Both the position numbers and the translations under genes were made by a program. Positions 1-27,370 of a stretch of 64,000 bases of DNA are shown in pieces. Position 1 is the first letter of the stretch; every line of letters begins with the position of its first letter. Under the pieces are notes generated by a model. It worked only from the letters and a program-made list of their open reading frames with translations, was not told where the DNA came from and did not search any database. Origin of the DNA: Candidatus Heimdallarchaeota archaeon (GTDB taxonomy: Archaea; Asgardarchaeota; Heimdallarchaeia; JABLTI01); contig JABCTZ010000046.1 in assembly GCA_018238155.1 (NCBI GenBank), positions 32,001-96,000 on the forward strand, written 5' to 3'.

Positions 1-792
1 CAAACTATCTCGAGTAAGAGTTCCTTCTTTTACAGCCATTTCAACTGCTTTTGATATCATTGCTCCCGAGGATAATTTGGCATGATGGAAATAGACTCTT
101 TCGGTGAGAAAATATCGTAACCGTAATAGATGTAAAATTTCTGATCGAGCATCAGATCGTTCCATTCGGTTTTTAACAAAATTTAGTACAAGCTTTCCTT
201 TTTCTACTATGAAATAACTTAGTACACGATTATCATAGTCTTTGTTAATACCTGTATGATAACAATCTCTTCGAATATAATCTAAGAGATCGGAGCAAAT
301 AGTATCGTTGATTATTTGGCTCATCCAACTCTCTCCTCCTGTATTGATTGTTGGATCTTTATTTGTTAATATTTTAACTAACTTGTTTTTTATTCCCATA
401 CTATTTAATTCATCACCTAACATTCCAACAGATAAATTACGCTTGAAATTTTCATCTTTATCATGTTTTTCGAAAATCTTCCGTTCATCTTCGAAAGTAT
501 GGCCATATGGAACGTGACTAATATCATGAACTAAACCTGCAATAGCAATCAATTCTTCTCTATCAGAACCAATTTCATAGCCATTCAATCGCAATGTTTG
601 AACTATTTTTTTAGCCAGAAAACTTGTTCCTAAGCTATGATCAAATCTGGTATGAGTTGCTCCTGGATAAACAAAGTGTGCTGTACCTAGTTGTTTTATT
701 CCACGTAATCTTTGTACTTCGGGGCAATCAATGATTTTTCGTTCATTTTCTGTGAATGACATATCACCATGAACTGGATCTCGAACAATCAA
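1..792 (-). CDS. HD-domain phosphohydrolase (SAMHD1/dNTPase-like), 3' end runs off the window
   Basis: Not in the ORF track. Manual minus-strand translation from TTG at 792 (AGGAG upstream) gives LIVRDPVHGDMSF...QRLRGIKQLGTAHFVYPGATHTRFDHSLG...GLVHDISHVPYGHTFE...DLLDYIRRD, the standard motifs of this family. Confidence 0.9.
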   Translation of the reverse strand, partial: MIVRDPVHGDMSFTENERKIIDCPEVQRLRGIKQLGTAHFVYPGATHTRFDHSLGTSFLAKKIVQTLRLNGYEIGSDREELIAIAGLVHDISHVPYGHTFEDERKIFEKHDKDENFKRNLSVGMLGDELNSMGIKNKLVKILTNKDPTINTGGESWMSQIINDTICSDLLDYIRRDCYHTGINKDYDNRVLSYFIVEKGKLVLNFVKNRMERSDARSEILHLLRLRYFLTERVYFHHAKLSSGAMISKAVEMAVKEGTLTRDSL

Positions 793-956
793 TTTTTCTT
801 TACTCCTTAAACTATTTCATTTTAAAATGGAAATAAGCGTAGCACTTTACTGTTTTTCAGCTATTAATCAATTGTTATTATATAATTTTCTTATTACTTT
901 ATTATTTTACCTTAATCGAAAAACAAAAATAGTATTTTGCATAGATTACATTCATT

Positions 957-1799
957 ATGAGAAAATTGCAGATTGCTGTAATAGGAAGCAAATCACTTGA
1001 TTTAAATATTGAATATGATAAAGCAGCTTGGGATTTTGCTTATAAAATCGGCTTTGCTCTTGGAAGAACAATTAATGTTGCTGTGATTACTAGTGGAAAT
1101 AAAGGTGTAACAGAAGCAGTAACCAAAGGAGTAAATGATGCAGGTGGTGTCTCAGTTGGAATTCTTGCAGGTAACTATAAAGAACAAGGAAACCCCGATT
1201 CTCATGTAAATATTGTAACAACTTTTGATGGACACAAACATTGTTGGCCATTGATCTATTCAAGTGATTGTGTGATATCTATTGGTGGAGGAGAAGAGAC
1301 AGGAATTCAAATATCTTTAGCAGTAGATTTGGGAATTCATGTGGTAATTTATTCTAAAGCAGGAGGGATTTCCTCAGAAGTATTTACTTCGTTAGAACCA
1401 ACTTTTCAAAAAATGCGCTCATCTCAGCTGGTCTATCTAGTAGATGATGAGGAAGAAGCTATTGACAGAGCTAAGAAATTTGCTAAAGAGCGAGCAACCA
1501 AAGAAATATATGTAGATGATAAAATTAGTGTTGATATTTCCCCTCAAATGATAACTTTGTGTAAAAAAGAAACCATTGCTATTCTCTTGCTTCTTAAGAA
1601 AAAGAAAACCTTGTCACCCCAAGAAATATCTGATGAGCTTAAAATCCCATTTATGATGGTTCAATCTTATATGCAAGAGCTTGATAGTCATGAAATTGTT
1701 CTAGCAAAAAAAACCATTGCAGATGAGCACTTATTCTCCATTAATCAAGACAACGAACAAGTTCGTAAATTTTTACTCTTACTCGATCTTGAAAAATAA
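957..1799 (+). CDS. SLOG/LOG (TIGR00725-like) nucleotide-binding domain fused to a C-terminal winged HTH
   Basis: IAVIGS...VITSGNKGVTEAVTKG...GGVSVGIL...SDCVISIGGG in the N-terminal part. The C-terminus (LSPQEISDELKIPFMMVQSYMQELDSHEIV) is ArsR-type wHTH-like. Confidence 0.75.
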   Translation: MRKLQIAVIGSKSLDLNIEYDKAAWDFAYKIGFALGRTINVAVITSGNKGVTEAVTKGVNDAGGVSVGILAGNYKEQGNPDSHVNIVTTFDGHKHCWPLIYSSDCVISIGGGEETGIQISLAVDLGIHVVIYSKAGGISSEVFTSLEPTFQKMRSSQLVYLVDDEEEAIDRAKKFAKERATKEIYVDDKISVDISPQMITLCKKETIAILLLLKKKKTLSPQEISDELKIPFMMVQSYMQELDSHEIVLAKKTIADEHLFSINQDNEQVRKFLLLLDLEK

Positions 1800-11539: not shown

Positions 11540-14500
11540 ATGAACTCTAGGATTAAAATTCTTAAAGATATAATGGAAATCGAAAAGCAATTCGCTCTTG
11601 AGAAAATTAATTCTGAAGTTTTCGAAACCAAAATGCATGTATTAGAACAAAAATTCCAACAAGCAAATGCACTAACAGAAGATGAATTACGATTAGCAAT
11701 CGATACAAAAGAAATCCCTCTTAGTGCTAATAGTTTAATTGGTAAAATATCAATTGAAAATTTGATACCAAACAGTAAAGTCCCTCGAACGTTCTTTAGA
11801 CACCTTAAAATTCGAAGAGAAATAAGTGAATTAGAAAGGAATGTAAAAAAATTAAAGCATGATATGCACAAAATAAAGATCCTATTAGCAGAGAAAAAAG
11901 TAAATCAAGATTCTGCTACAAGAAAATTGGAAACGTTAGAGTATGATCTTAGACTAGCTCAAAATCGATTTGGTGCTCGAGAGAAATATCTAAAACGAAA
12001 CCCATCAAAAGGTCACCTACTTAAATTCACTCTGACGAATTTTCTGCAATTCTCCTATGGTCATGGCGTGGAAAACAATGCTGAATTATTAACGATAACT
12101 CAAGAACTAAAGAAGGAAATTAATTTAAGAATTAAATATCGTGATGCTTTAGCAGAGTTACTTGCAACACTAAAAACAACTCAATTGGAAATTCGTTCCT
12201 CTTCAAAAATCGGCTCACTTCCTGACTTTAAAAAATTACGCGAATTTCAACAAACAATAAATGAACTTCATGATTACATAAAATTACTAACTGTTGATAT
12301 AAATGACTTTCAAAATTGTTTAAGCAGATTAGAAAAAAATAATTTAAAAATGGATGAATCACATGAATTATTTGTTGATAATTCATTTGGAATCAATGTG
12401 GATGCCAGTACAGAGAACCTTTCATCACCGATAGAAAATGAAAGTAAACTTAGTGCTTCTGAAGTTGAAACTGATCCGTTACTTAAAACTATAGCTATTG
12501 ATGAAGATAAGTTTGAAAATACTTTCTTTTTAATTGACACATTAGATATTGAAGATACTATTGAAGAAGATAAAGTATCTTTGAAATCAGAAGAAATTGA
12601 TGCGAAATTACGTGTACCTGAAACACCACAATTAACAATTTCAACTGATATTGGTTTAGAAATAGTCGGTATGGAAGATTTCAATTTACAATATAATATT
12701 AAAGGGTCTCCAAAAAGAATGAACGAGCTAACTGAAGGAGTAATCCTCAATTCTTTTGAAGAATTTCTAACTCAACTTTTGGATTCAAAAGAAGTTGAAG
12801 AAGAACCAAAAACGGTAAAAGTAGAAAAACCACAAAGCAAACAAGTGATTGCAAAAGCAACCTTCAAAAGTTTAGCAGAAGAAGTAAAAAAACGAAAGAC
12901 TTCTGATATTCCTAAACCCTCTAAGAGAGATTCAGAACATAGTATTGAAGCTCAAGAAGTAGGAGAAGCTTTTGATGAAATCACTGAAATAAAAGAAATT
13001 AGTGCTTTACAACAAGATGAATTAGAAGCAATTGAAATACATGAGCCCGAAATTCCAGTAAGTGAATCAACAGAAGCAGTTGGAGAGATACCAACAATTC
13101 CGGATGTAGAAAATAGCTCCCTCCCCGAAATTGATTCTTCTTTAGGTGAAGCTTTGTCACCGGAAAAAGCTCAACAAGAGACAAAAGAAATTAGTCCTTC
13201 TCGTCAAATTGTTGAAGAAAATCTGATAAAACCACAAAAAACTTCTATGGTTTCAGAGAAATTATTGGAAGCAGCAACAGAAGCATGGAAATTAACTGGT
13301 AAAGCTCTATTTAATCTCAAAGATGATGGTTCACGTGAATTTTACGGTTACTTGCAAGAAGCAGTAGTTTATGATAAAAATAAATTAGGATACACTTTGG
13401 TAACAGAACCAATTGCAGATCAAACTGTGATTGATAAAATATTCGATCAAATAAAACCTCTCTGGGTTACAGAAGAGCTATTGGAATCAGCAACAAAACG
13501 GAAAGTTTTTCTTATTCAAGAAGTAGTTGACTCTTTACAGATACAGAGAGATGTAGCTTTACATATTTCCAAATTACAAGAATTCTCGAATTTTAGAAAT
13601 ATCAATTTCCCAAGCTCAGATAAAATTGGAAAACCAGAGATTCTTGGCCTGGTGCCAATCAATAAAATAAGAATTAAACGTGGATCGATTATTTGCAAAT
13701 TAGATGATATTGCAGCACAACAACCATATAGAACTGCTCCATGGTCAGCAAATGATTTTGAAAATGAAGAGAATAATCCGATAGGAAAAAACTGCTTATT
13801 ACATCATGGAGTTTCATTTGGTAAAATAATAGCTTCCGTGAAGCATCCACTTATGGGGAATGTTTTTCTTGTAGACACAAATCAACCTGATAAATCAATT
13901 GTCAATTATTTAGTCCAGAGATTGAATATTTCTGAAGATGATAAAACGGAACGACTTTGGCTATTGAAATACCTAATAGCTAAACAGTTGCGGATTCCAG
14001 AAGGTGAAGCTCTTAAACCAAAGACATTAATTAACTACTCATTACAAAGAGGTTTCCCAATACTCCCTAATGAAATTCTCAACTCTTATAGAGTATTTAT
14101 TTCAGGTGGATCTATCAATAGTATCAAAAGAAATAATGTTACTTTAAAAAATTCTGCACGAATTTTCCATCCTTCTGAAGTCATTCCAATAGAATGCTTA
14201 CGTGTTCGAACAACAAATGGTCGGCATTTGGGAACCTGTCTAGGTATTTCCTTATCAGATAAACCCGTTCTTCTTATTTCTGAAAAATTATCTCGAGAAA
14301 TGGTTGCACTTTTCACCAATGCAACTGTAGAAAAACAAATTATGACTGACATTTCAGACTCAGTAATTGGAAGTATTGGAGTAGAGTTACGAGATTCCTT
14401 GTGTCCACATAATATTTTGAAAACACTTATTGTTGGAAGAAAAATACAAACATTAACAGAATATGGTCATTATCTTTCAAAAATGATTGTCACAGGTATT

Positions 14501-14596
14501 GATCTGTCGAGAATTCAAGTCGTAGAGAAAGGAACGGTCTATATTACTGCAATGGAAGTATTTTCAAATCCAAATATCTTTGGACAAGAAAACTAA
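11540..14596 (+). CDS. Large hypothetical protein: N-terminal coiled coil, acidic linker, three C-terminal PRC-barrel-like repeats
   Basis: 1018-aa ORF with a heptad-rich N-terminus, a Glu/Pro-rich middle and three repeats of about 130 aa (see findings). Confidence 0.6.
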   Translation: MNSRIKILKDIMEIEKQFALEKINSEVFETKMHVLEQKFQQANALTEDELRLAIDTKEIPLSANSLIGKISIENLIPNSKVPRTFFRHLKIRREISELERNVKKLKHDMHKIKILLAEKKVNQDSATRKLETLEYDLRLAQNRFGAREKYLKRNPSKGHLLKFTLTNFLQFSYGHGVENNAELLTITQELKKEINLRIKYRDALAELLATLKTTQLEIRSSSKIGSLPDFKKLREFQQTINELHDYIKLLTVDINDFQNCLSRLEKNNLKMDESHELFVDNSFGINVDASTENLSSPIENESKLSASEVETDPLLKTIAIDEDKFENTFFLIDTLDIEDTIEEDKVSLKSEEIDAKLRVPETPQLTISTDIGLEIVGMEDFNLQYNIKGSPKRMNELTEGVILNSFEEFLTQLLDSKEVEEEPKTVKVEKPQSKQVIAKATFKSLAEEVKKRKTSDIPKPSKRDSEHSIEAQEVGEAFDEITEIKEISALQQDELEAIEIHEPEIPVSESTEAVGEIPTIPDVENSSLPEIDSSLGEALSPEKAQQETKEISPSRQIVEENLIKPQKTSMVSEKLLEAATEAWKLTGKALFNLKDDGSREFYGYLQEAVVYDKNKLGYTLVTEPIADQTVIDKIFDQIKPLWVTEELLESATKRKVFLIQEVVDSLQIQRDVALHISKLQEFSNFRNINFPSSDKIGKPEILGLVPINKIRIKRGSIICKLDDIAAQQPYRTAPWSANDFENEENNPIGKNCLLHHGVSFGKIIASVKHPLMGNVFLVDTNQPDKSIVNYLVQRLNISEDDKTERLWLLKYLIAKQLRIPEGEALKPKTLINYSLQRGFPILPNEILNSYRVFISGGSINSIKRNNVTLKNSARIFHPSEVIPIECLRVRTTNGRHLGTCLGISLSDKPVLLISEKLSREMVALFTNATVEKQIMTDISDSVIGSIGVELRDSLCPHNILKTLIVGRKIQTLTEYGHYLSKMIVTGIDLSRIQVVEKGTVYITAMEVFSNPNIFGQEN

Positions 14597-14647: not shown

Positions 14648-15025
14648 TTAACCTGGTTTCACTTCAGATGCTAAACGGGCAATATCAACATATGCATGTC
14701 TTACTTGATGAGAAGGTGAACACCAAGCCATCACGAAACCTTGCCAGAAGGGAGTTTTTGCAATAACTATGTGCCCTTGTTTTTGAGTGTTTGTGCAAAT
14801 CATTCGACTATTTGTTATATCAATGGTTGAATATTTTATCCCTTGTATCACTATCCAAGGAGCTTTTTTTGTCCATGAATCAATCATGGTTGGTCCATCT
14901 ACTTGCCAATTTTGTGTTTGCCAATGGACAGCACCATCAGCCCCTATTAAAGCAAGTGCTCCTACTACACCATCATTTTGTAATCTTGCAGCTTCTGATT
15001 CAAATGTCAATTTAGTTATCTCCAT
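14648..15025 (-). CDS. Profilin (Asgard type)
   Basis: ALIGADGAVHWQTQNW...IQGIKYS....NSRMICTNTQKQGHIVIA matches the Asgard profilin pattern; 125 aa. Confidence 0.85.
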   Translation of the reverse strand: MEITKLTFESEAARLQNDGVVGALALIGADGAVHWQTQNWQVDGPTMIDSWTKKAPWIVIQGIKYSTIDITNSRMICTNTQKQGHIVIAKTPFWQGFVMAWCSPSHQVRHAYVDIARLASEVKPG

Positions 15026-15226: not shown

Positions 15227-18175
15227 TTATTTCTTTCGTCTTGAAATCAGATAGCTACCTGCTAAACCTAAAATGCTAATTGAAATCAAAATTATTGGTG
15301 TAAATCCAGCCTTAACTGTCTCAGTACATTCAAAGAGCAGATAATCAAATTCATCGACACCTGTTGTTCCACATTCAGGATAGAAATGATAGGTACCAAG
15401 GGATTCACATTCATAAGCAAATGACCACATACCATTAGTTAATTCTACCCAAGTAAGGTTGTGACGTGTATCTTCGGGAGTGATAACATATCCACCAAAG
15501 TCTGCACCAGGACCACTAATGTATTCATAAGTCATGTTCATTACTCCAGCAGTAAAGGAGTAATTATATTGTTTAATCCTATGCTCTGCTGTTGCCCATC
15601 GGACAAGATTTCGACCGAAAACATCATTCTGTGTACCAATGCCACTGTATTTGTTTTTATACCCATCACTATCTAGAGCAAAGTTTGTTGACATAACAAT
15701 AACTCTTCCGCCAGATGGTGCTTGGTAATAAGCAACTGTGGAATAATCATATCCTGCAGCAAATTCAGTGACTTGAACCGCATCACCTGATGTTTCTAAA
15801 GAACATCCATAATGATCAACACCGGTAACTCCAGCTGTAAGAGCATGATTGCCTACTGGATTTACGATGAGTGTAGATGGTGAACCCCAAATATCATCTC
15901 GAACGTGTATACCATATTGATCTGTGAATTCATTGATGTGAGTAACATTTGTTCCATAAACCATTGAGAGTTCATCATTAAAGGCGTTTCCATTGAAATT
16001 AAGGAAAACACTTCCACCTGCAGTGACAAAATTACTTAATGCTGTTAATTCTGCTGTAGAAAGTGGATTATATGTAGAACTATCCAATGCATCATCTATG
16101 AGAATGCTGTATGGATCTGGGAACCACACTGCTTCATAATTGCTTAATATATCTGCAGTAAGAACAATACTTTGTTCACTAATAACCCAACCTCTATTCA
16201 ATAGATCGGCAGTAAAGAATTTATATTGTCCATACATGTGATCATTCATCCAATTTGTTGTCCTATAATTGAGGAGCATTCTATGTTCCCCATGGCTTGG
16301 AACAACTTTGATTTTGACATCAACAGTATCTAAAACGGTTCCTTTGTATTTAAAAGTAAATTCTCCGTTGTAAGTACCAGGCGCAGTGGTTACTGGAACT
16401 GAATAAGTGACTCTAGCAGTTGCAGAGTAGTAGTTACTAACTTCATCTAAATCTAATAAAGCTGCAGCGGTACCTGAAACTTCCAAAGTTAAATTATTGT
16501 CTCTAAATGGTGAGACACAAGTGACAAATTGTTCTACCACTTGACCTTGAAGTAATTCAGCATAAATAGATACTGGATTAGTAAGTGGATTAAGAGCACC
16601 AATGATTGGATAATTGCCTTCTTTATCAGCATTTATTAACAAAGTAGCTGCGGCACCAACGTTAGCCATACCTCTACCTTGTATTAAGTGATCAAATGAA
16701 TGTGTTGGTAATGGTTTTGCTGTGTACATTAAAGCACTTTTAATTGCACCAGGATTATATGAGAGACTTTCTGTTTTACAAACATCAACTAATATAGCTG
16801 CAGCACCGGCTATTTGTGGTGCGGACATAGAAGTACCACTCATTGAAACATATCCAGTATCAGATTGATAACTGCAAGACATGATACCGTAACCAGGAGC
16901 TACTAAATCTGGTTTCATTGTATTATCAGCATTTGGTCCTAGAGATGAGAAATAAGCCATACTTAATGGAAGTGAAGAGTCATCTGCTGCACCAACAGAA
17001 ATAGCTGCGGTAGGAGAATCTGTAGAATAAACACCTTGATCGCCTTCATTACCGTTTGAATGAACAAATTTTACTCCGTTATTATTAACAACGTTCGTAA
17101 TAGCTGCTTCTAGAATATTGATACTTGGTTCCGCTCCACATCCAAAGCTCATATTGATAACATCAGCACCTTGAGCTGATAACCAATTTACACCGGCAAT
17201 CATTGATACCAATGTTGCGGGAGCACCATCTTCGTGATGATCACCAATTTTTGCTGCATAAAATGTTACTCCAGGAGCAATACCAACTCTTTGTGAATTA
17301 GCTGTACCATCACCACCAACTATACCTGCGACATGAGTGCCGTGCCCAACAAAATCAGTGTTGGATGTATCAGTAAAATCATATCCATATCCTATTGTAA
17401 CGAAACTTTGTTGTTTACCAACTCTACCTGATAGGTCTGCATGAGTTGAACGAATGCCAGTATCAAGAATTCCGACATTAACTCCGCTTCCATCATATCC
17501 AGCATTTACCAATAGAGTAGCATTCATTGTATTGGCATTTTTTAAAGTATCAGGAGAAAAGGAATAATCAGTATCATCCTTAACAGTATCAAATGTATAA
17601 TAAATATCAGTTGTATCAGCTATTGTTGAATATGCACCAAGACTTTTGATGTCATTTTCAACACCAGAATAATAAGGTACTAAAGCACAACCTGTTTCCC
17701 AAAATATTTCACTGTTTTCAAAAGCTAACAAAGTGGATAGATCAGAGAAATCAGATCCGACAATTGCAACCATGATAAATCTTATTTCTGCAGTAGTAAT
17801 AAAAACAACATCAGTCAATTCTGCAATTTGATATAATGAATCTTCTGTTGTAGAGATTTTTACTCTTGTTCCTGCATCCCAAATATCGTTAGTGCAAACA
17901 GCACCAAGATTAGTCAATTTTTGCAAATCAAGGGAATCAATGCGATGATTGAATTTGATAGCAATCTCATCTGAGTATCCGTTGGTAAATGCCGTGGTAC
18001 TCAATAATTTATCGTCTATTTTATCTCCATTATTATCAATTGCTTCTTTCATGTACAAAGTTGGTTCTGTAACACTAAAAGCGGACACATTAATATTAGC
18101 AATTATTTTGGGTCCGGCAGCAGATAATATGAATAATGATAGAAGACTTAAACCTAGAATAGTTCCTTTCTTCAT
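15227..18175 (-). CDS. Secreted, C-terminally anchored S8 subtilase with Ig-like and GATase-like domains (Site-1 protease-like architecture)
   Basis: Signal peptide; catalytic motifs ILDTG, GHGTHVAG, SNGNEG and SGTSMSAP; C-terminal TM helix followed by RRKK. Confidence 0.9.
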   Translation of the reverse strand: MKKGTILGLSLLSLFILSAAGPKIIANINVSAFSVTEPTLYMKEAIDNNGDKIDDKLLSTTAFTNGYSDEIAIKFNHRIDSLDLQKLTNLGAVCTNDIWDAGTRVKISTTEDSLYQIAELTDVVFITTAEIRFIMVAIVGSDFSDLSTLLAFENSEIFWETGCALVPYYSGVENDIKSLGAYSTIADTTDIYYTFDTVKDDTDYSFSPDTLKNANTMNATLLVNAGYDGSGVNVGILDTGIRSTHADLSGRVGKQQSFVTIGYGYDFTDTSNTDFVGHGTHVAGIVGGDGTANSQRVGIAPGVTFYAAKIGDHHEDGAPATLVSMIAGVNWLSAQGADVINMSFGCGAEPSINILEAAITNVVNNNGVKFVHSNGNEGDQGVYSTDSPTAAISVGAADDSSLPLSMAYFSSLGPNADNTMKPDLVAPGYGIMSCSYQSDTGYVSMSGTSMSAPQIAGAAAILVDVCKTESLSYNPGAIKSALMYTAKPLPTHSFDHLIQGRGMANVGAAATLLINADKEGNYPIIGALNPLTNPVSIYAELLQGQVVEQFVTCVSPFRDNNLTLEVSGTAAALLDLDEVSNYYSATARVTYSVPVTTAPGTYNGEFTFKYKGTVLDTVDVKIKVVPSHGEHRMLLNYRTTNWMNDHMYGQYKFFTADLLNRGWVISEQSIVLTADILSNYEAVWFPDPYSILIDDALDSSTYNPLSTAELTALSNFVTAGGSVFLNFNGNAFNDELSMVYGTNVTHINEFTDQYGIHVRDDIWGSPSTLIVNPVGNHALTAGVTGVDHYGCSLETSGDAVQVTEFAAGYDYSTVAYYQAPSGGRVIVMSTNFALDSDGYKNKYSGIGTQNDVFGRNLVRWATAEHRIKQYNYSFTAGVMNMTYEYISGPGADFGGYVITPEDTRHNLTWVELTNGMWSFAYECESLGTYHFYPECGTTGVDEFDYLLFECTETVKAGFTPIILISISILGLAGSYLISRRKK

Positions 18176-18310: not shown

Positions 18311-19261
18311 TCACAAACGACTTGCTATTTTAAAGGTAATTTCTATGAGTGCTTGTAAAGAATTGCTGAACAGATATGTAATGGGTTCAATTCCGACTCC
18401 CCCAGTATTTAGTATGGCGAAAATTCCTCCTACTTTAATTGGTTCAATTAGTTCTTTCAATATCACATGCGCTTTTTTCGTTTTTTTCTCCTTGAATAGT
18501 TTTTCAAATTCATTATTTGGAAAAGTATGATATTTGATAGCCAAATTCTCCATTATTCGAAGAACTTTATCATTGTTAACAATATTTATTGTGCTATTAA
18601 AGGAAGGAGAATAAGCATTTATAGTCAAAAGTATTTGAGCCATGTGTTTTGATGCACCAAATTCTGGTGGAAGAAGTGCGCGTACTTTCCCTCTAATTTT
18701 TGTTATTCGTCCAGGAAACGCAGCAATATCATCTATTGTTTTCGGTTCTGGCAAACATTTGCATATATTGAGCAACACTTGGGGCATTACCTTTACAAAA
18801 TCTTCCTTTCTCTCCATTGCGGATAATACTTCCAATAATTCAGTAATAACTTTCTTTCTACTTTCGATTAGAATTTCATCTGTTATCGGTAAGCATCCTT
18901 GGCACCCGGCAGTTATTCCCGGATAACTTTTCACATGCTTTCTACAAGTTAAACCACTTATTCGGAGATTCACACAACTAGAGCAAATTTTTCTGATGAT
19001 TTCTTCAGGTGAAGCATTGTTGATAGAACTAGCAACAATATCATTAACTAGCAGCTTCACAGTATTACTTTCAAGATATTCCTCCTTACCTTCCGCTCGA
19101 ATAGTATCTAATGATTTAAGATAACTACTTATCGTTGGTTGGCTTACACCCATTTTTTCAGCAACTTCACTTTGGGTCATATGATTTATCAATTCTTGAG
19201 CTACCAGCCCACGGACAAGTGGTAAAAAATTCTGAGTTACAATTTCACAAGGAGGACGCAT
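18311..19261 (-). CDS. thiR: HTH plus ThiN (thiamine-phosphate synthase-like) domain regulator, ThiR-like
   Basis: MRPPCE....LP.VR...TQSEVAEKMGVSQPTISSY HTH; IAAFPGRI...PEFGASKHMA ThiN motif. Confidence 0.8.
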   Translation of the reverse strand: MRPPCEIVTQNFLPLVRGLVAQELINHMTQSEVAEKMGVSQPTISSYLKSLDTIRAEGKEEYLESNTVKLLVNDIVASSINNASPEEIIRKICSSCVNLRISGLTCRKHVKSYPGITAGCQGCLPITDEILIESRKKVITELLEVLSAMERKEDFVKVMPQVLLNICKCLPEPKTIDDIAAFPGRITKIRGKVRALLPPEFGASKHMAQILLTINAYSPSFNSTINIVNNDKVLRIMENLAIKYHTFPNNEFEKLFKEKKTKKAHVILKELIEPIKVGGIFAILNTGGVGIEPITYLFSNSLQALIEITFKIASRL

Positions 19262-19382: not shown

Positions 19383-20678
19383 TTATTTATCCATATTGGC
19401 AAGAAGCTTAGGTTTACGATTTCCATCTGCTTCAAGAATTTTATTGCATTTATTGCAAACTCTTACCTTAACCTTCTCGAAAGTGTATGAAGACAATTCA
19501 TGTTTTGCAAAAGATTCACCACACTCTGCACAAGTTTTAAGATGGACGGTTTCATCAGATGCTAGTTCCTCTTGTTGAGGAGGTAGTGCAATTAAATTTC
19601 TTTGAGAGTCACTGAGCATTGGTTGTTGAGTTTGTTGTGGTTGCAGAGTTTGTTGTGGTTGCTGAGTTTGTTGTTGTGATTGCTGACCTCTAGCAAGTGC
19701 TTTTACCGCATCAAATGAGCTTTTTGGTACTGCAGGTAAGTTAAAATTATCAGTAAAATTAAGAATTTTCTGGTGATCTTTTTCACGACCAACACGCTTG
19801 AGAAAGTCACCAAGTTCAACATCTATCAAAGAAAGCTCTGAAAGTAATGCAGTATTTTGAATGGTTTTTGGATCTCGTTTTTTCAGTGTAGGTTGTTGAC
19901 CGGGTTGTCCTGGAATATATTCAGGAGGTTTATTTAAAACATCTAAATCTACGTTTTTTAATCGTAGGAGGATATCATCAAGGAGTTTATTATAAAGGTC
20001 ATCCCGTTTTTGGCGATTCAAGATTTCAATGTAAGGTTCAATAGCTTGATAATGATAATGATTGAAAATATTATCATAAAAGACATCTATACCAAATTCC
20101 AATATTCCATCCAAAAGCTCTTGCTCAGTGATTTTAAAATTTTCAGATAAATAGCTAACCCAATCAGCAGGTAAATCAAACGGTTGAAGAATCAAAATTG
20201 AAACAATTTGATCAAACAGTGCATCCTGATATTGTGACATATCATCAACTTTGCTCATAGCTTTTAATGCTTGATTGAAGAATATTTTAGTTCCACTAAT
20301 TGCATATCTGGATAAACCAACAAAAACTCGTTGATGAGGTTTGAGATTAGAAATCATCATACGAGTAAGAATGAATGCTGCGAGAAAATTAAGCAGAAAA
20401 GATAATAAGAGTCCATAGAGACCATAAGAAAATCTTGTCATAAGCTTCGTTTCATTAGAAAAAATAATCATTGAAGCAATTAACCAAATAATTCCTGTCG
20501 CACAAGAACCTATCCGGAAGTAGTGATAAAATTTACCAATTTTTGCTTGGCGAGCACATGTTTGACATGCACCACTATTATCAAGTTCTGCTTCAGTTAC
20601 ACAACTTTTACAGATAGAAACATTACAAATAGCACATCTTTCTTCAGATTCTACGATTGGATGATAAACGCATTTCAT
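19383..20678 (-). CDS. Membrane protein with an N-terminal B-box-like Zn finger, two TM helices, a Gln-rich tract and a C-terminal Zn ribbon
   Basis: CVYHP...CAIC...CKSC...CQTC; two hydrophobic segments; CAEC...CNKC. Confidence 0.65.
   Translation of the reverse strand: MKCVYHPIVESEERCAICNVSICKSCVTEAELDNSGACQTCARQAKIGKFYHYFRIGSCATGIIWLIASMIIFSNETKLMTRFSYGLYGLLLSFLLNFLAAFILTRMMISNLKPHQRVFVGLSRYAISGTKIFFNQALKAMSKVDDMSQYQDALFDQIVSILILQPFDLPADWVSYLSENFKITEQELLDGILEFGIDVFYDNIFNHYHYQAIEPYIEILNRQKRDDLYNKLLDDILLRLKNVDLDVLNKPPEYIPGQPGQQPTLKKRDPKTIQNTALLSELSLIDVELGDFLKRVGREKDHQKILNFTDNFNLPAVPKSSFDAVKALARGQQSQQQTQQPQQTLQPQQTQQPMLSDSQRNLIALPPQQEELASDETVHLKTCAECGESFAKHELSSYTFEKVKVRVCNKCNKILEADGNRKPKLLANMDK
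19621..19674. repeat. 3 x 18-bp tandem repeat encoding QQT(Q/L)QP
   Basis: ggttgttgagtttgttgt / ggttgcagagtttgttgt / ggttgctgagtttgttgt. Confidence 0.85.
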
Positions 20679-25529: not shown

Positions 25530-26168
25530 ATGACTCATCAAGATATTATAACTAACCAACAAAAACTTGTAAAGGTGCTATCTGATATTTCTGTTGGAAA
25601 TGTATTAGATGATAATAATCATAGATTTCTTTTGCATTTCTTAGTAAAACAACCTTTAACTGTAGAAGAAATCAAAATTGAATTTCAAAAATCAGGGAAC
25701 GATAAATCAGATAAGACTATTTATCGTTATTTAAAAAAACTCAAAAAAGCAGGTTTAGTGATAGAAGCAGGGAAACGAATTTTTTCTGATAGCAATAACC
25801 AAATCAAAACTCAAACATTGTTCGCACGAGTGGCAAAAATAATCTTTACTCCCCATAGTAAAATAGACAGTAAACCAGAATTAAAAGAAACAGCTTTAAA
25901 AATAACCAGTATGTTGCTTAAAGAACGTCTGAATCTAAAAGAAGATGCAGATTTGTCTTGTATTCAGAAACAAGTAGATAATATTGCTAAAGTCAAAAAT
26001 GAACTAATAGCTGATCATTTTCAAAGCTCTGAGAATCCAGAATTAATGAATCTCATTCAAACTATGGATATCTATGAACTTTACCCTATTTTAGATACAG
26101 TCAGTTGGATTCTACTCTTAAATGAAAACCCAGAAGCAGTAGAAGAAATTATCAAATGCTTCGAGTAA
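25530..26168 (+). CDS. Winged-HTH transcriptional regulator, paralog 1
   Basis: PLTVEEI...KSDKTIYRYLKKLKKAGLV.EAGKR. Confidence 0.75.
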   Translation: MTHQDIITNQQKLVKVLSDISVGNVLDDNNHRFLLHFLVKQPLTVEEIKIEFQKSGNDKSDKTIYRYLKKLKKAGLVIEAGKRIFSDSNNQIKTQTLFARVAKIIFTPHSKIDSKPELKETALKITSMLLKERLNLKEDADLSCIQKQVDNIAKVKNELIADHFQSSENPELMNLIQTMDIYELYPILDTVSWILLLNENPEAVEEIIKCFE

Positions 26169-26185
26169 TAGTTTAATGTTATTAT

Positions 26186-26202
26186 TGTCCCAAATTGGGA
26201 CA
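26186..26202. promoter_or_regulatory. Perfect 8-1-8 palindrome, candidate operator
   Basis: TGTCCCAA-A-TTGGGACA between the two wHTH genes. Confidence 0.5.
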
Positions 26203-26266
26203 TTCAGATAATTTTTTGTGAAAAACATTAAAAGAAGTTAGTACAGTAATTTAATGGGAACTACTC

Positions 26267-26902
26267 ATGAAATTGCAAGATGTAATAATAAATAAAGAAA
26301 AAATCGTCAAAACAATCTATGACACACAAAGTGCAAAGTGCCTTTCTGATGACAAAAATTGCCAACTTTTACTTTCCTTTCTTTTAAGTGGTCCAATGAC
26401 TTTTGAAGACCTCAAACAAGCTTTCAAGAGTGTTCAATCAGAAAAATCAGATAAAACTATTTATGGTTATTTAAACAAATTAAAGAAAGCAGATCTTGTT
26501 ATGGAAACTGGCAAACGTTTTATTACTTATTCTGAAAGCCATATTAAAACATTAGCATTATATTCTCGCACAGCAAAAGTCTTCTACATCGCCATCGATA
26601 TTGATGAAAAGAAGAGTAGTGTTTACTTTGAGCTAGTTGGAGCTCTTCTTTGTGAAATTCTCGGATATGAAGAATTTGATGAAAATTGTTTTAAGAAGAT
26701 TTATGAGGAGTTTAAAGATGAGAAACGAAGTGAAATTTCAAAAATAAACGAAATCACTAACCCAAAAATTATGAAACTTTTAGCTTCTCCAGATGTTTTA
26801 GGAGCAAAATATGTTATTGATACAATGATGATGTTTGCTTTTATTGGAAAACAAAAGAACCTAAACGATGAATTTCTAAAATGTTTTAAAAAGAAAATTT
26901 AA
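26267..26902 (+). CDS. Winged-HTH transcriptional regulator, paralog 2
   Basis: PMTFEDL...KSDKTIYGYLNKLKKADLV.ETGKR; collinear with 25530..26168. Confidence 0.75.
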   Translation: MKLQDVIINKEKIVKTIYDTQSAKCLSDDKNCQLLLSFLLSGPMTFEDLKQAFKSVQSEKSDKTIYGYLNKLKKADLVMETGKRFITYSESHIKTLALYSRTAKVFYIAIDIDEKKSSVYFELVGALLCEILGYEEFDENCFKKIYEEFKDEKRSEISKINEITNPKIMKLLASPDVLGAKYVIDTMMMFAFIGKQKNLNDEFLKCFKKKI

Positions 26903-27016: not shown

Positions 27017-27370
27017 ATGCCAAATAAACAAGAAGAAAACAGTGATGTAAAAACCAAGAAAATTAAGCCAAAGAGTAAGCACATAATTGATGCTATGCTA
27101 TTTATCGAAGCAACATCTGCAGAAAACCCCTGTCATTTAGAGCAATTGGCATTAGATCTTTCATTGTACGAAAAACGTATTAAACATTTCATCAAAAATA
27201 AAGTAATAATACCTGTATCAGATATCAATGAAAATAACTTTTATTTGGATTATGATTTTTATCTTAAATTTAAGGAACAAGAAGATAAACGTTTTTTCAT
27301 AACCATTGTATCTATAGTTATACCTGGATTTTTACTTCTAGTATTGGGATTTGCTTGGTTAATTATGTAG
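27017..27370 (+). CDS. Small tail-anchored protein with a possible wHTH-like soluble domain
   Basis: Soluble region of about 90 aa followed by a single C-terminal TM helix. Confidence 0.55.
   Translation: MPNKQEENSDVKTKKIKPKSKHIIDAMLFIEATSAENPCHLEQLALDLSLYEKRIKHFIKNKVIIPVSDINENNFYLDYDFYLKFKEQEDKRFFITIVSIVIPGFLLLVLGFAWLIM

Follow-up and report, generated by a model that had tools for sequence, protein, structure and literature searches.

A predicted membrane-anchored subtilase of a Heimdallarchaeota archaeon with a Site-1 protease-like ectodomain

A 64,000-nucleotide stretch of DNA from Candidatus Heimdallarchaeota archaeon (assembly GCA_018238155.1, contig JABCTZ010000046.1, positions 32,001 to 96,000), referred to below as the window, carries on its reverse strand a gene at 15227..18175 that encodes a protein of 982 amino acids followed by a stop codon. 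Pfam and an AlphaFold2 (AF2) model describe it as a membrane-anchored subtilase in which a peptidase S8 domain is followed by a beta-sandwich and by a GIFT domain, that is, a GATase-like alpha/beta fold. The same three parts make up the ectodomain of the eukaryotic Site-1 protease (S1P, also named SKI-1 or MBTPS1), the protease that gates SREBP and ATF6 activation as well as several viral glycoproteins. Here we describe the archaeal protein, its relatives among the Asgard archaea, and how near to S1P it stands.

The reverse-strand open reading frame (ORF) begins with a hydrophobic, signal-peptide-like segment, MKKGTILGLSLLSLFILSAAGP (residues 1-22, 18110..18175; hydrophobic window 4-22). This segment is kept in 36 of the 37 rows of A1, an alignment of 37 close relatives sharing 43-83% identity, and the remaining row is without its start. 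A two-lobed pro-region follows (residues ~38-205, 17561..18064), as seen from the AF2 secondary structure and from superposition with VIA-align (VIA). Its second lobe (~130-200) superposes on the propeptides of subtilisin and Tk-SP, with pro-subtilisin E matching model residues 130-511 and ProN-Tk-SP residues 37-617; residues 199-207 form a linker of low model confidence. Peptidase_S8 (PF00082, residues 229-496, E 1.7e-46, 159.3 bits against a cut-off of 21.8) is the sole Pfam family recognised in the protein, and NCBIfam returns sub-threshold subtilase families only. Within this catalytic domain (residues ~215-515, 16631..17533), the triad residues D238 (17462-17464), H278 (17342-17344) and S449 (16829-16831), together with the oxyanion residue N376 (17048-17050), come in subtilisin order and are invariant, in 37/37 rows of A1 and 36/36 rows of a second alignment of relatives. 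Next is a beta-sandwich (residues ~520-627, 16295..16618) in the same position as the P-like subdomain of S1P, as delimited by a separate model, VIA and hhalign. The GIFT domain (residues ~628-865, 15581..16294) is placed by profile, by VIA and by weak Pfam matches. A membrane-proximal beta-sandwich, or immunoglobulin (Ig)-like stalk, is seen in the AF2 strands at residues ~866-950 (15326..15580), with E934-C935-G936 among the invariant columns. The protein ends in a transmembrane (TM) helix (residues 958-978; AF2 helix 959-981, hydrophobic window 953-971) and a basic tail, RRKK (residues 979-982), which together occupy 15230..15307. Helix and tail are also kept across A1 and occur in 30 of 36 aligned family members; a shorter family type of 660-740 residues has a TM helix at its N-terminus only.

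The AF2 model of the full protein, built on A1 and free of templates, has a mean predicted local distance difference test (pLDDT) score of 85 and a predicted TM-score (pTM) of 0.77. Its first element is a hydrophobic N-terminal helix. Two alpha/beta lobes at 67-187 are followed by the S8 core; behind the core come a beta-sandwich at ~520-625 and an alpha/beta domain at ~630-865, and another beta-sandwich at 866-950 precedes the terminal helix. A separate model of the beta-sandwich/GIFT module (residues 515-872) reaches a pLDDT of 91. The initial annotation, made from the letters of the DNA, had listed a signal/pro region, an S8 domain, an Ig-like domain, an alpha/beta domain and a C-terminal TM anchor; all of these are seen in the ORF or the model, and the alpha/beta domain it had put at 15560-16290, which is residues 628-872, agrees with the model.

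When the full model is compared with the Protein Data Bank (PDB) in Foldseek, human S1P comes out on top (9csd_A, E 2.6e-37, 758 columns; 8uw8_A, E 2.2e-35, TM-score 0.64 normalised by target), with S1P alignments of 753-758 columns, and the next matches are Vpr (3e-28) and Tk-SP (1e-25). VIA, whose full-model comparison covered 986 of Foldseek's 1000 top chains, places 590 residues of the predicted model onto the solved structure 8uw8_A in a single superposition (Z 42.2, root-mean-square deviation 3.7 A, 22% identity), with model residues 207-946 equivalent to S1P 190-881. Other subtilases in this comparison align over 400 residues at most, and among the chains compared only S1P matches the S8 domain, the beta-sandwich and the GIFT domain as one rigid body. 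The S1P structures date from 2024-2025 and are later than the AF2 training data. With the module model alone, Foldseek again puts S1P first (5.2e-16, 441 columns) and IFT52 behind it (1e-10, ~250 columns), so that the fold comparison that the initial annotation had proposed for residues ~520-870 points to S1P. A Foldseek-independent VIA comparison of the module with 48,161 chains gives IFT52 at Z 22.6 (203 residues), S1P at Z 19.1 (313 residues, model 8-353 equivalent to S1P 478-876) and OST48 at Z 18.9. The three best GIFT fold matches of this Asgard protease-linked domain are thus all eukaryotic proteins. The S1P structure paper (PMC11231238) gives the eukaryotic enzyme two pro-domains, A and B, ahead of S8; after S8 come the "P-like" sandwich (479-616) and GIFT (617-998), and the chain closes with a TM helix and a short tail. 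The 982-residue protein has the same order of S8, beta-sandwich, GIFT, TM helix and basic tail, and in its predicted model the three ectodomain parts are arranged in space as in solved S1P. The Site-1 protease-like architecture that had been read from the sequence is therefore upheld by the Foldseek and VIA matches to the full model.

The resemblance can also be followed in the sequence. BLASTP against P0214, a eukaryotic S1P whose Pfam content is MBTP1_N, S8, MBTPS1_3rd and MBTPS1_4th, yields a single collinear high-scoring segment pair (HSP; query 217-838, subject 167-784, 22% identity, E 1e-18) that spans all three domains. Within it, NPGAIKSALMYTAKPLP is aligned with NPASMKQALMSSARRLP, VKIKVVP with LRSKIIP, and NWMNDHMYGQY...LLNRGWVI with DWNADHIHTNF...LRSFGYFV. 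HMMER against human S1P pairs the TNVTHINE-type motif with ANIPALNE and the GGRVIV-type motif with GGGRIV. Most of the motif pairs that the initial annotation had listed are thus aligned by one program or the other, but its GCSL/GCSI pair is not aligned there. At the profile level, A2, a profile of 36 beta-sandwich/GIFT modules sampled across the phylum, matches P0214 525-828 in hhalign with 97.5% probability (E 8.4e-12, 235 columns). The match crosses the border between S1P domains 3 and 4 and reaches into the third domain (P0214 525-585), which bears out the profile-profile check suggested for this region. Among PDB sequences, A2 matches IFT52 (E 7e-11) and human S1P (E 1.5e-5). A second module profile, A3, was made from the proteases of an Asgard group introduced below as "B"; it finds IFT52 at 1.3e-15 and human S1P at 9e-14, with S1P 564-857 aligned across the P-like/GIFT border. 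In a library of 5.8 billion proteins, A3 also retrieves the eukaryotic S1Ps P0213 (2.1e-14), P0214 (3.2e-13) and P0215 from Chloropicon primus (1.9e-9). As leads only, the ESM Atlas gives for the whole protein its own Asgard cluster (0.97) and then nine eukaryotic S1P clusters (0.93), and for the module alone a plant S1P cluster on top (0.85). The sequence statistics support a relationship between the beta-sandwich/GIFT module and S1P, and the alpha/beta domain is a member of the GIFT domain superfamily, both by profile and by fold.

A number of results nevertheless weigh against a close kinship with S1P. Taken alone, the window protein scores 12.0-12.6 bits with MBTPS1_4th (PF23090) against a cut-off of 27 (E 0.09-0.14), and a search for this model in its own genome, which is 90.7% complete, gives no match. 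MBTPS1_3rd (PF23094, cut-off 27 bits) is absent at E<=0.1 from scans of the 36 modules and over its cut-off in none of 301 Asgard genomes (0/301). In residues 1-229 Pfam recognises nothing at E<=10, and hence no MBTP1_N (PF23001) either. Of the 144 PDB sequences matched by the whole protein, the best 60 do not include S1P. In the GIFT domain, the scores for IFT52 (44.8 bits with A2 and 60.4 with A3) equal or exceed those for S1P (27.3 and 54.3 bits), and the S8 domain is nearer to Tk-SP (32% identity) and subtilisin BPN' (35-37%) than to S1P (22% over the whole alignment). In VIA these two reach Z 44.2 over 325 residues (Tk-SP, model 205-617) and Z ~40 over 268 residues (BPN'); these identities make the catalytic domain an ordinary, prokaryote-like subtilase. 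The careful S8 tree, on a weak branch, and the three-domain tree, both presented below, also speak against a place beside S1P. Other searches are less directional. The GIFT region has weak Pfam matches to IFT52_GIFT (0.026), ABC_transp_aux (0.032) and MBTPS1_4th (0.093). When the 36 members of A2 are scanned singly, IFT52_GIFT is matched by 13, ABC_transp_aux by 10, DUF4350 by 6 and MBTPS1_4th by 4, none over the Pfam cut-off; the best IFT52_GIFT match among them is 6.4e-6. At E<=0.01, MBTPS1_3rd occurs in 2/301 Asgard genomes, both times in other genes, and weakly in 1/14 control genomes. The C-terminal half alone gives no sequence match to solved structures, and a word-based search with A2 found 40 proteins, 0 of them eukaryotic.

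The family is widespread in the Asgard archaea. With residues 520-982 as the query, and within the 301 Asgard genomes searched, the module is present in 153 genomes, in 38 of the 90 high-quality genomes and in 37 of 70 genera. The counts by family in the window's class are 9/10 (f1), 26/29 (f2), 11/11 (f3), 19/21 (f4), 1/1 (f5), 2/3 (f6) and 0/2 (f7); outside the class they are 69/76 (f11), 0/68 (f14) and 0/19 (f17). At all 50 loci that were fetched, the matching ORF aligns with the window protein from S8 through GIFT. The window's own genome has three copies: the one described here, one at C7:192307-193623 within a 998-residue ORF (45% identical along its whole length and 49% in the C-terminal module) and one at C41:82296-83339 within a 738-residue ORF. 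Tandem paralogues are seen in family f2, where locus L143 (G026:C1) has two adjoining matches and L100, L105 and L108 have a second, partial S8 ORF alongside. An exhaustive profile search of 1.84 billion representatives finds 2917 proteins at E<=1e-3, 614 at <=1e-10 and 147 at <=1e-30. An upstream S8 domain is present in 118 of 150 proteins (P0043-P0192), of which 145 come from among the matches listed by this search and 5 from the word-based search; the others are fragments or giant multi-GIFT proteins lacking S8, one of them labelled Krumholzibacteriia. The giants (P0116, P0122, P0132, P0135, P0140, P0147, P0168) are 2974-4066 residues long, contain 6-8 GIFT repeats and lack S8, and their C-termini resemble one another; P0116 bears the labels Krumholzibacteriia and DUF4350. 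Close relatives are labelled Heimdallarchaeota, Gerdarchaeota, Thorarchaeota or "Asgard group", and one is annotated "Pyrolysin precursor" (OLS25986.1). The named S8-bearing relatives are all labelled Asgard, bar one "Korarchaeota" and one "Bathyarchaeia" metagenome-assembled genome label; of 20 clusters queried, 4 held a named member.

Outside the Asgard archaea, the complete S8-beta-sandwich-GIFT unit was not found in 484 genomes of four other phyla (121 each), namely those of a Halobacteriales, a Chloroflexi, a Planctomycetota and a Woesearchaeota locus. In these phyla A2 matches one domain at a time only, in 12, 3, 3 and 10 genomes, respectively (E<=1e-5), and the 8 best non-Asgard loci from these searches have no S8 domain. 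A profile scan of genome contigs with A1 was swamped by generic S8 domains because of their GTSM motif; it returned 78 bacterial and archaeal loci of generic subtilases and no orthologue. In six-frame searches at E<=0.01, MBTPS1_4th is matched in 51/301 Asgard genomes, 18 of them over the cut-off, and in 0/14 controls; in two other phyla it is matched in 1/121 genomes (none over the cut-off) and 0/121. The initial annotation had named a grouping with generic archaeal or bacterial DUF4350-containing subtilases, far from MBTPS1, as the result that would speak against it; the window protein does not fall among bacterial DUF4350 subtilases, and among the sampled genomes the unit was seen in Asgard archaea only.

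The Asgard proteins found through their match to MBTPS1_4th form the "B" group (for example loci L150-L168, and P0208, which is labelled Promethearchaeota). All 19 of the matching ORFs that were fetched consist of S8, beta-sandwich and GIFT, and the subfamily thus shares its three-domain core with the window protein. The two differ in that the "B" GIFT domain passes the S1P MBTPS1_4th model, in 18/301 genomes, while that of the window protein does not. A "B" member was not detected in the window's own genome (90.7% complete). Several proteins of the "B" type (L150, L153, L155, L156, L167, P0208, P0158 and P0172) are ~1270 residues long and carry a cytoplasmic zinc ribbon (Zn_Ribbon_1) after the TM helix. 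Such a tail could couple the protease outside to something inside the cell.

Trees were made from a pool of S8 domains comprising the window protein, 54 Asgard ORFs, three eukaryotic S1Ps and, as outgroup, the 78 generic loci of the A1 scan. After length filters 133 domains remained, two generic ORFs of over-long span and one partial Asgard ORF being dropped, and a 62% identity filter left 92 rows (40 Asgard, 2 S1P, 50 generic), the 41 removed including the partial P0213. Eukaryotes are represented in the S8 trees by these two S1Ps, without other eukaryotic subtilases. The three methods used give three placements of S1P. A quick LG+C20 tree puts the S1P pair in a cluster of 21 rows with 19 Heimdall-class proteins, the window protein among them (approximate likelihood-ratio support, SH-aLRT, 71). 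FastTree nests the pair within 33 Asgard rows and 0 generic ones, beside L154/L152 (support 0.94). The careful tree (LG+C20 with posterior mean site frequencies, PMSF) separates 40 Asgard and 2 generic rows from S1P and 48 generic rows on a weak branch (48/86). Its likelihood is better than that of the quick tree (-40529 against -40592), and its bootstrap did not converge: over 1000 bootstrap trees, S1P has a purely generic sister 665 times, a purely Asgard one 325 times and a mixed one 10 times. For the sister relationship to S1P that had been suggested for testing, two methods give nesting and the third, on its weak branch, does not, and the S8 trees neither support nor reject it.

A tree of all three domains was computed by the careful method from 42 rows and 665 columns, with no outgroup. 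It separates S1P and 11 "B" proteins from 29 "A" proteins at 96/99. S1P adjoins the Heimdall-class pair L154/L152 (92/72), and the window protein lies on the other side, in an 18-row Heimdall-class clade (100/98). Because the members of group "B" were selected with the S1P GIFT model itself, there is some circularity in their joining S1P on GIFT columns; in addition, the S1P stem and L152/L154 are long branches. When the S8 columns only of this set are used in FastTree, S1P still joins L154/L152 (0.86); with the module columns it joins the "B" group (0.77 and 0.97). The window protein is a distant, paralogue-level relative of S1P and not a member of the S1P family. Of the "prokaryotic relative of S1P" first proposed, what stands is the body plan and the relatedness of the beta-sandwich/GIFT module; on the other side, another Asgard subfamily is nearer to S1P (96/99), and the S1P-specific Pfam models fail on the window protein.

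Comparison with known systems helps to place the protein. With S1P (PDB 8UW8, 8UWC, 9CSD) it has in common a signal peptide, a pro-region, an S8 domain with the D/H/S triad and oxyanion Asn, a beta-sandwich wedged on the protease, a GIFT domain, a single C-terminal TM helix and a basic tail (S1P layout from PMC11231238). It differs from S1P by its low identity (22%), by falling short of the MBTP1_N, MBTPS1_3rd and MBTPS1_4th models and by its extra Ig-like stalk (866-950). S1P itself cleaves after motifs of the type R-x-(hydrophobic)-L/K, described in part in PMC11231238. The best sequence match among solved structures (E 2e-31) is Tk-SP from Thermococcus kodakarensis (PDB 3AFG, 9UES). In Tk-SP and pyrolysin-type enzymes the propeptide, S8 domain and following beta-sandwich align with the window protein, but the match of the solved chains stops at model residue 617, and they have no counterpart of the GIFT domain, the Ig stalk or the membrane anchor. 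Since Tk-SP aligns through the beta-sandwich, the pairing of S8 with beta-sandwich is found outside S1P too. A GIFT domain like that of the window protein is present in IFT52 (Z 22.6 over 203 residues; profile 7e-11) and OST48 (Z 18.9); in IFT52, OST48 and bacterial GldG/DUF4350 proteins, however, GIFT comes without a protease.

Taken together, these data suggest as the likely product of the gene a type-I membrane-anchored, catalytically intact subtilase of the Heimdall class, which belongs to an Asgard-wide S8-beta-sandwich-GIFT superfamily and has the three-part ectodomain of S1P in the same order and spatial arrangement. Its topology and intact triad suggest an outward-facing, autoprocessing zymogen, for which the following course can be proposed. 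The protein would be exported by its signal peptide, would fold as a zymogen on the N-terminal pro-region and would then remove that region itself. The mature protein would sit on the outer face of the membrane, atop the Ig-like stalk, and the GIFT domain would pack against loops of the protease and shape access to the active site, as it does in S1P. For S1P, support of the oxyanion-hole loops and restriction of access to the active site are ascribed to GIFT (PMC11231238); by analogy, that of the window protein probably does the same for its own oxyanion-hole loops and active site. Its putative role is most likely to process, shed or degrade proteins at the cell surface or outside the cell. 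The several paralogues and the tandem copies are no less consistent with a part in processing surface proteins, or in scavenging protein, than with signalling.

How the likeness to S1P arose can be explained in more than one way. Eukaryotic S1P may descend vertically from the Asgard S8-beta-sandwich-GIFT family, which would mean that a membrane-anchored, GIFT-gated, outward-facing subtilase pre-dates eukaryotes; this is put forward tentatively, with appreciable credence that stops short of an even chance. Alternatively, a pyrolysin/Tk-SP-type subtilase already endowed with a beta-sandwich could have gained a GIFT domain within the Asgard archaea, in an event separate from the fusion behind S1P, in which case the two would share parts and not descent as whole proteins. 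Such convergent assembly would suit the alignment of Tk-SP through the beta-sandwich (model 205-617, Z 44.2, 32%), the careful S8 tree, which leaves S1P outside Asgard with a generic sister in 665/1000 bootstrap trees, the GIFT profile scores of IFT52 at or above those of S1P, and the lack of any MBTPS1_3rd match over cut-off in the 301 Asgard genomes. It fits poorly with one collinear HSP across all three domains, with hhalign and HMMER alignments that cross the beta-sandwich/GIFT border, with 590 residues that superpose as one body at 3.7 A, with a combination not seen in the 484 genomes of four other phyla and with quick and FastTree S8 trees that nest S1P among the Asgard GIFT-subtilases, and we regard it as unlikely. 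A recent transfer of S1P from a eukaryote to Asgard archaea would account for the resemblance itself but for nothing more specific. It is hard to reconcile with a family present in 37/70 sampled Asgard genera and divided into deep subfamilies, with 22% identity to S1P and with a prokaryotic-looking S8 domain (32% to Tk-SP, 35-37% to subtilisin), and can be given almost no weight. Under vertical descent, IFT52 and OST48 may likewise owe their GIFT domains to this Asgard pool.

A question apart is whether the window protein works as an archaeal site-1 protease, making the first extracytoplasmic cut in a membrane-tethered regulator that an M50 site-2 protease would then release. Its body plan and topology are like those of S1P, and the search for M50 proteases that had been suggested finds three in the genome; none is on the window's contig, though, and M50 genes are also present in 14/14 control genomes. 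Two membrane-tethered proteins of the window had been put forward as candidates, and neither holds as a tethered substrate: that encoded at 19383-20678 (-) has a TM hairpin with a 13-residue outer loop that is not conserved in three orthologues, and that at 27017 ends at its TM helix (tail-anchored) and has no part outside the cell. The gene order, moreover, is kept in 3/3 loci of the same genus and 0/2 of another family, and up to three paralogues per genome, with tandem copies elsewhere, fit a broader role. The site-1 function is thus very improbable here. A search for SPRING (SPRING1, Pfam PF10218), for its part, found no match in the genome (90.7% complete), and none in the control genomes either, so that it has no positive control.

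An Asgard-wide family with the body plan of S1P is a candidate prokaryotic origin of the S1P ectodomain, and it makes one more candidate eukaryote-like protein for the Asgard archaea. Among proprotein convertases, the GIFT-bearing ectodomain is treated as unique to S1P in PMC11231238, and no report of an archaeal S1P relative turned up in a literature search whose coverage leaves most subscription journals outside. If descent is indeed vertical, S1P would count as an Asgard-derived eukaryotic signature protein that has not been listed so far, and the outward face on which its ancestor worked would correspond topologically to the later lumen of the endoplasmic reticulum and Golgi. The archaeal protein also offers a simpler model for the effect of a GIFT domain on a subtilase, possibly a SPRING-independent one, as no homologue was detected in the search just mentioned. 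New here are the counts that describe the distribution, a second Asgard subfamily that lies closer to S1P, the direct comparison with eukaryotic S1P sequences, and the S8 and three-domain trees.

Around the protease, the order of genes for an MBL-fold protein, a zinc-ribbon TM protein, a ThiN-helix-turn-helix (HTH) protein, the protease, a profilin and a 1018-residue protein is found at the three same-genus loci just counted, in one of which two of these genes are unmatched. Being conserved within the genus only, this order says little. Directly downstream of the protease, at 14648-15025 (-), lies a profilin-like gene of 125 residues (PF00235, E 6.7e-5, 23.4 bits against a cut-off of 25), which adjoins the protease in 2/3 of the same-genus loci. 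The 1018-residue protein at 11540-14596 (+), found in 3/3 of these loci, has a faint match to the syntaxin-6 N-terminal domain (E 0.057) and otherwise no Pfam match. Upstream and on the same strand, 18311-19261 (-) encodes an HTH fused to ThiN (thiamine-phosphate synthase, E 3.2e-35). The 431-residue product of 19383-20678 (-) has Cys-rich, zinc-ribbon-like ends, the TM hairpin noted above and a Q-rich linker, and its cytoplasmic parts are conserved in the three orthologues. Farther along, 25530-26902 (+) holds two adjoining paralogues of ~211 residues with similar N-terminal halves, marked by MxxQD(I/V)IxNxxK(L/I)VK...KSDKTIY(R/G)YLxKLKKA, which from their sequences look like tandem winged-helix-type regulators.

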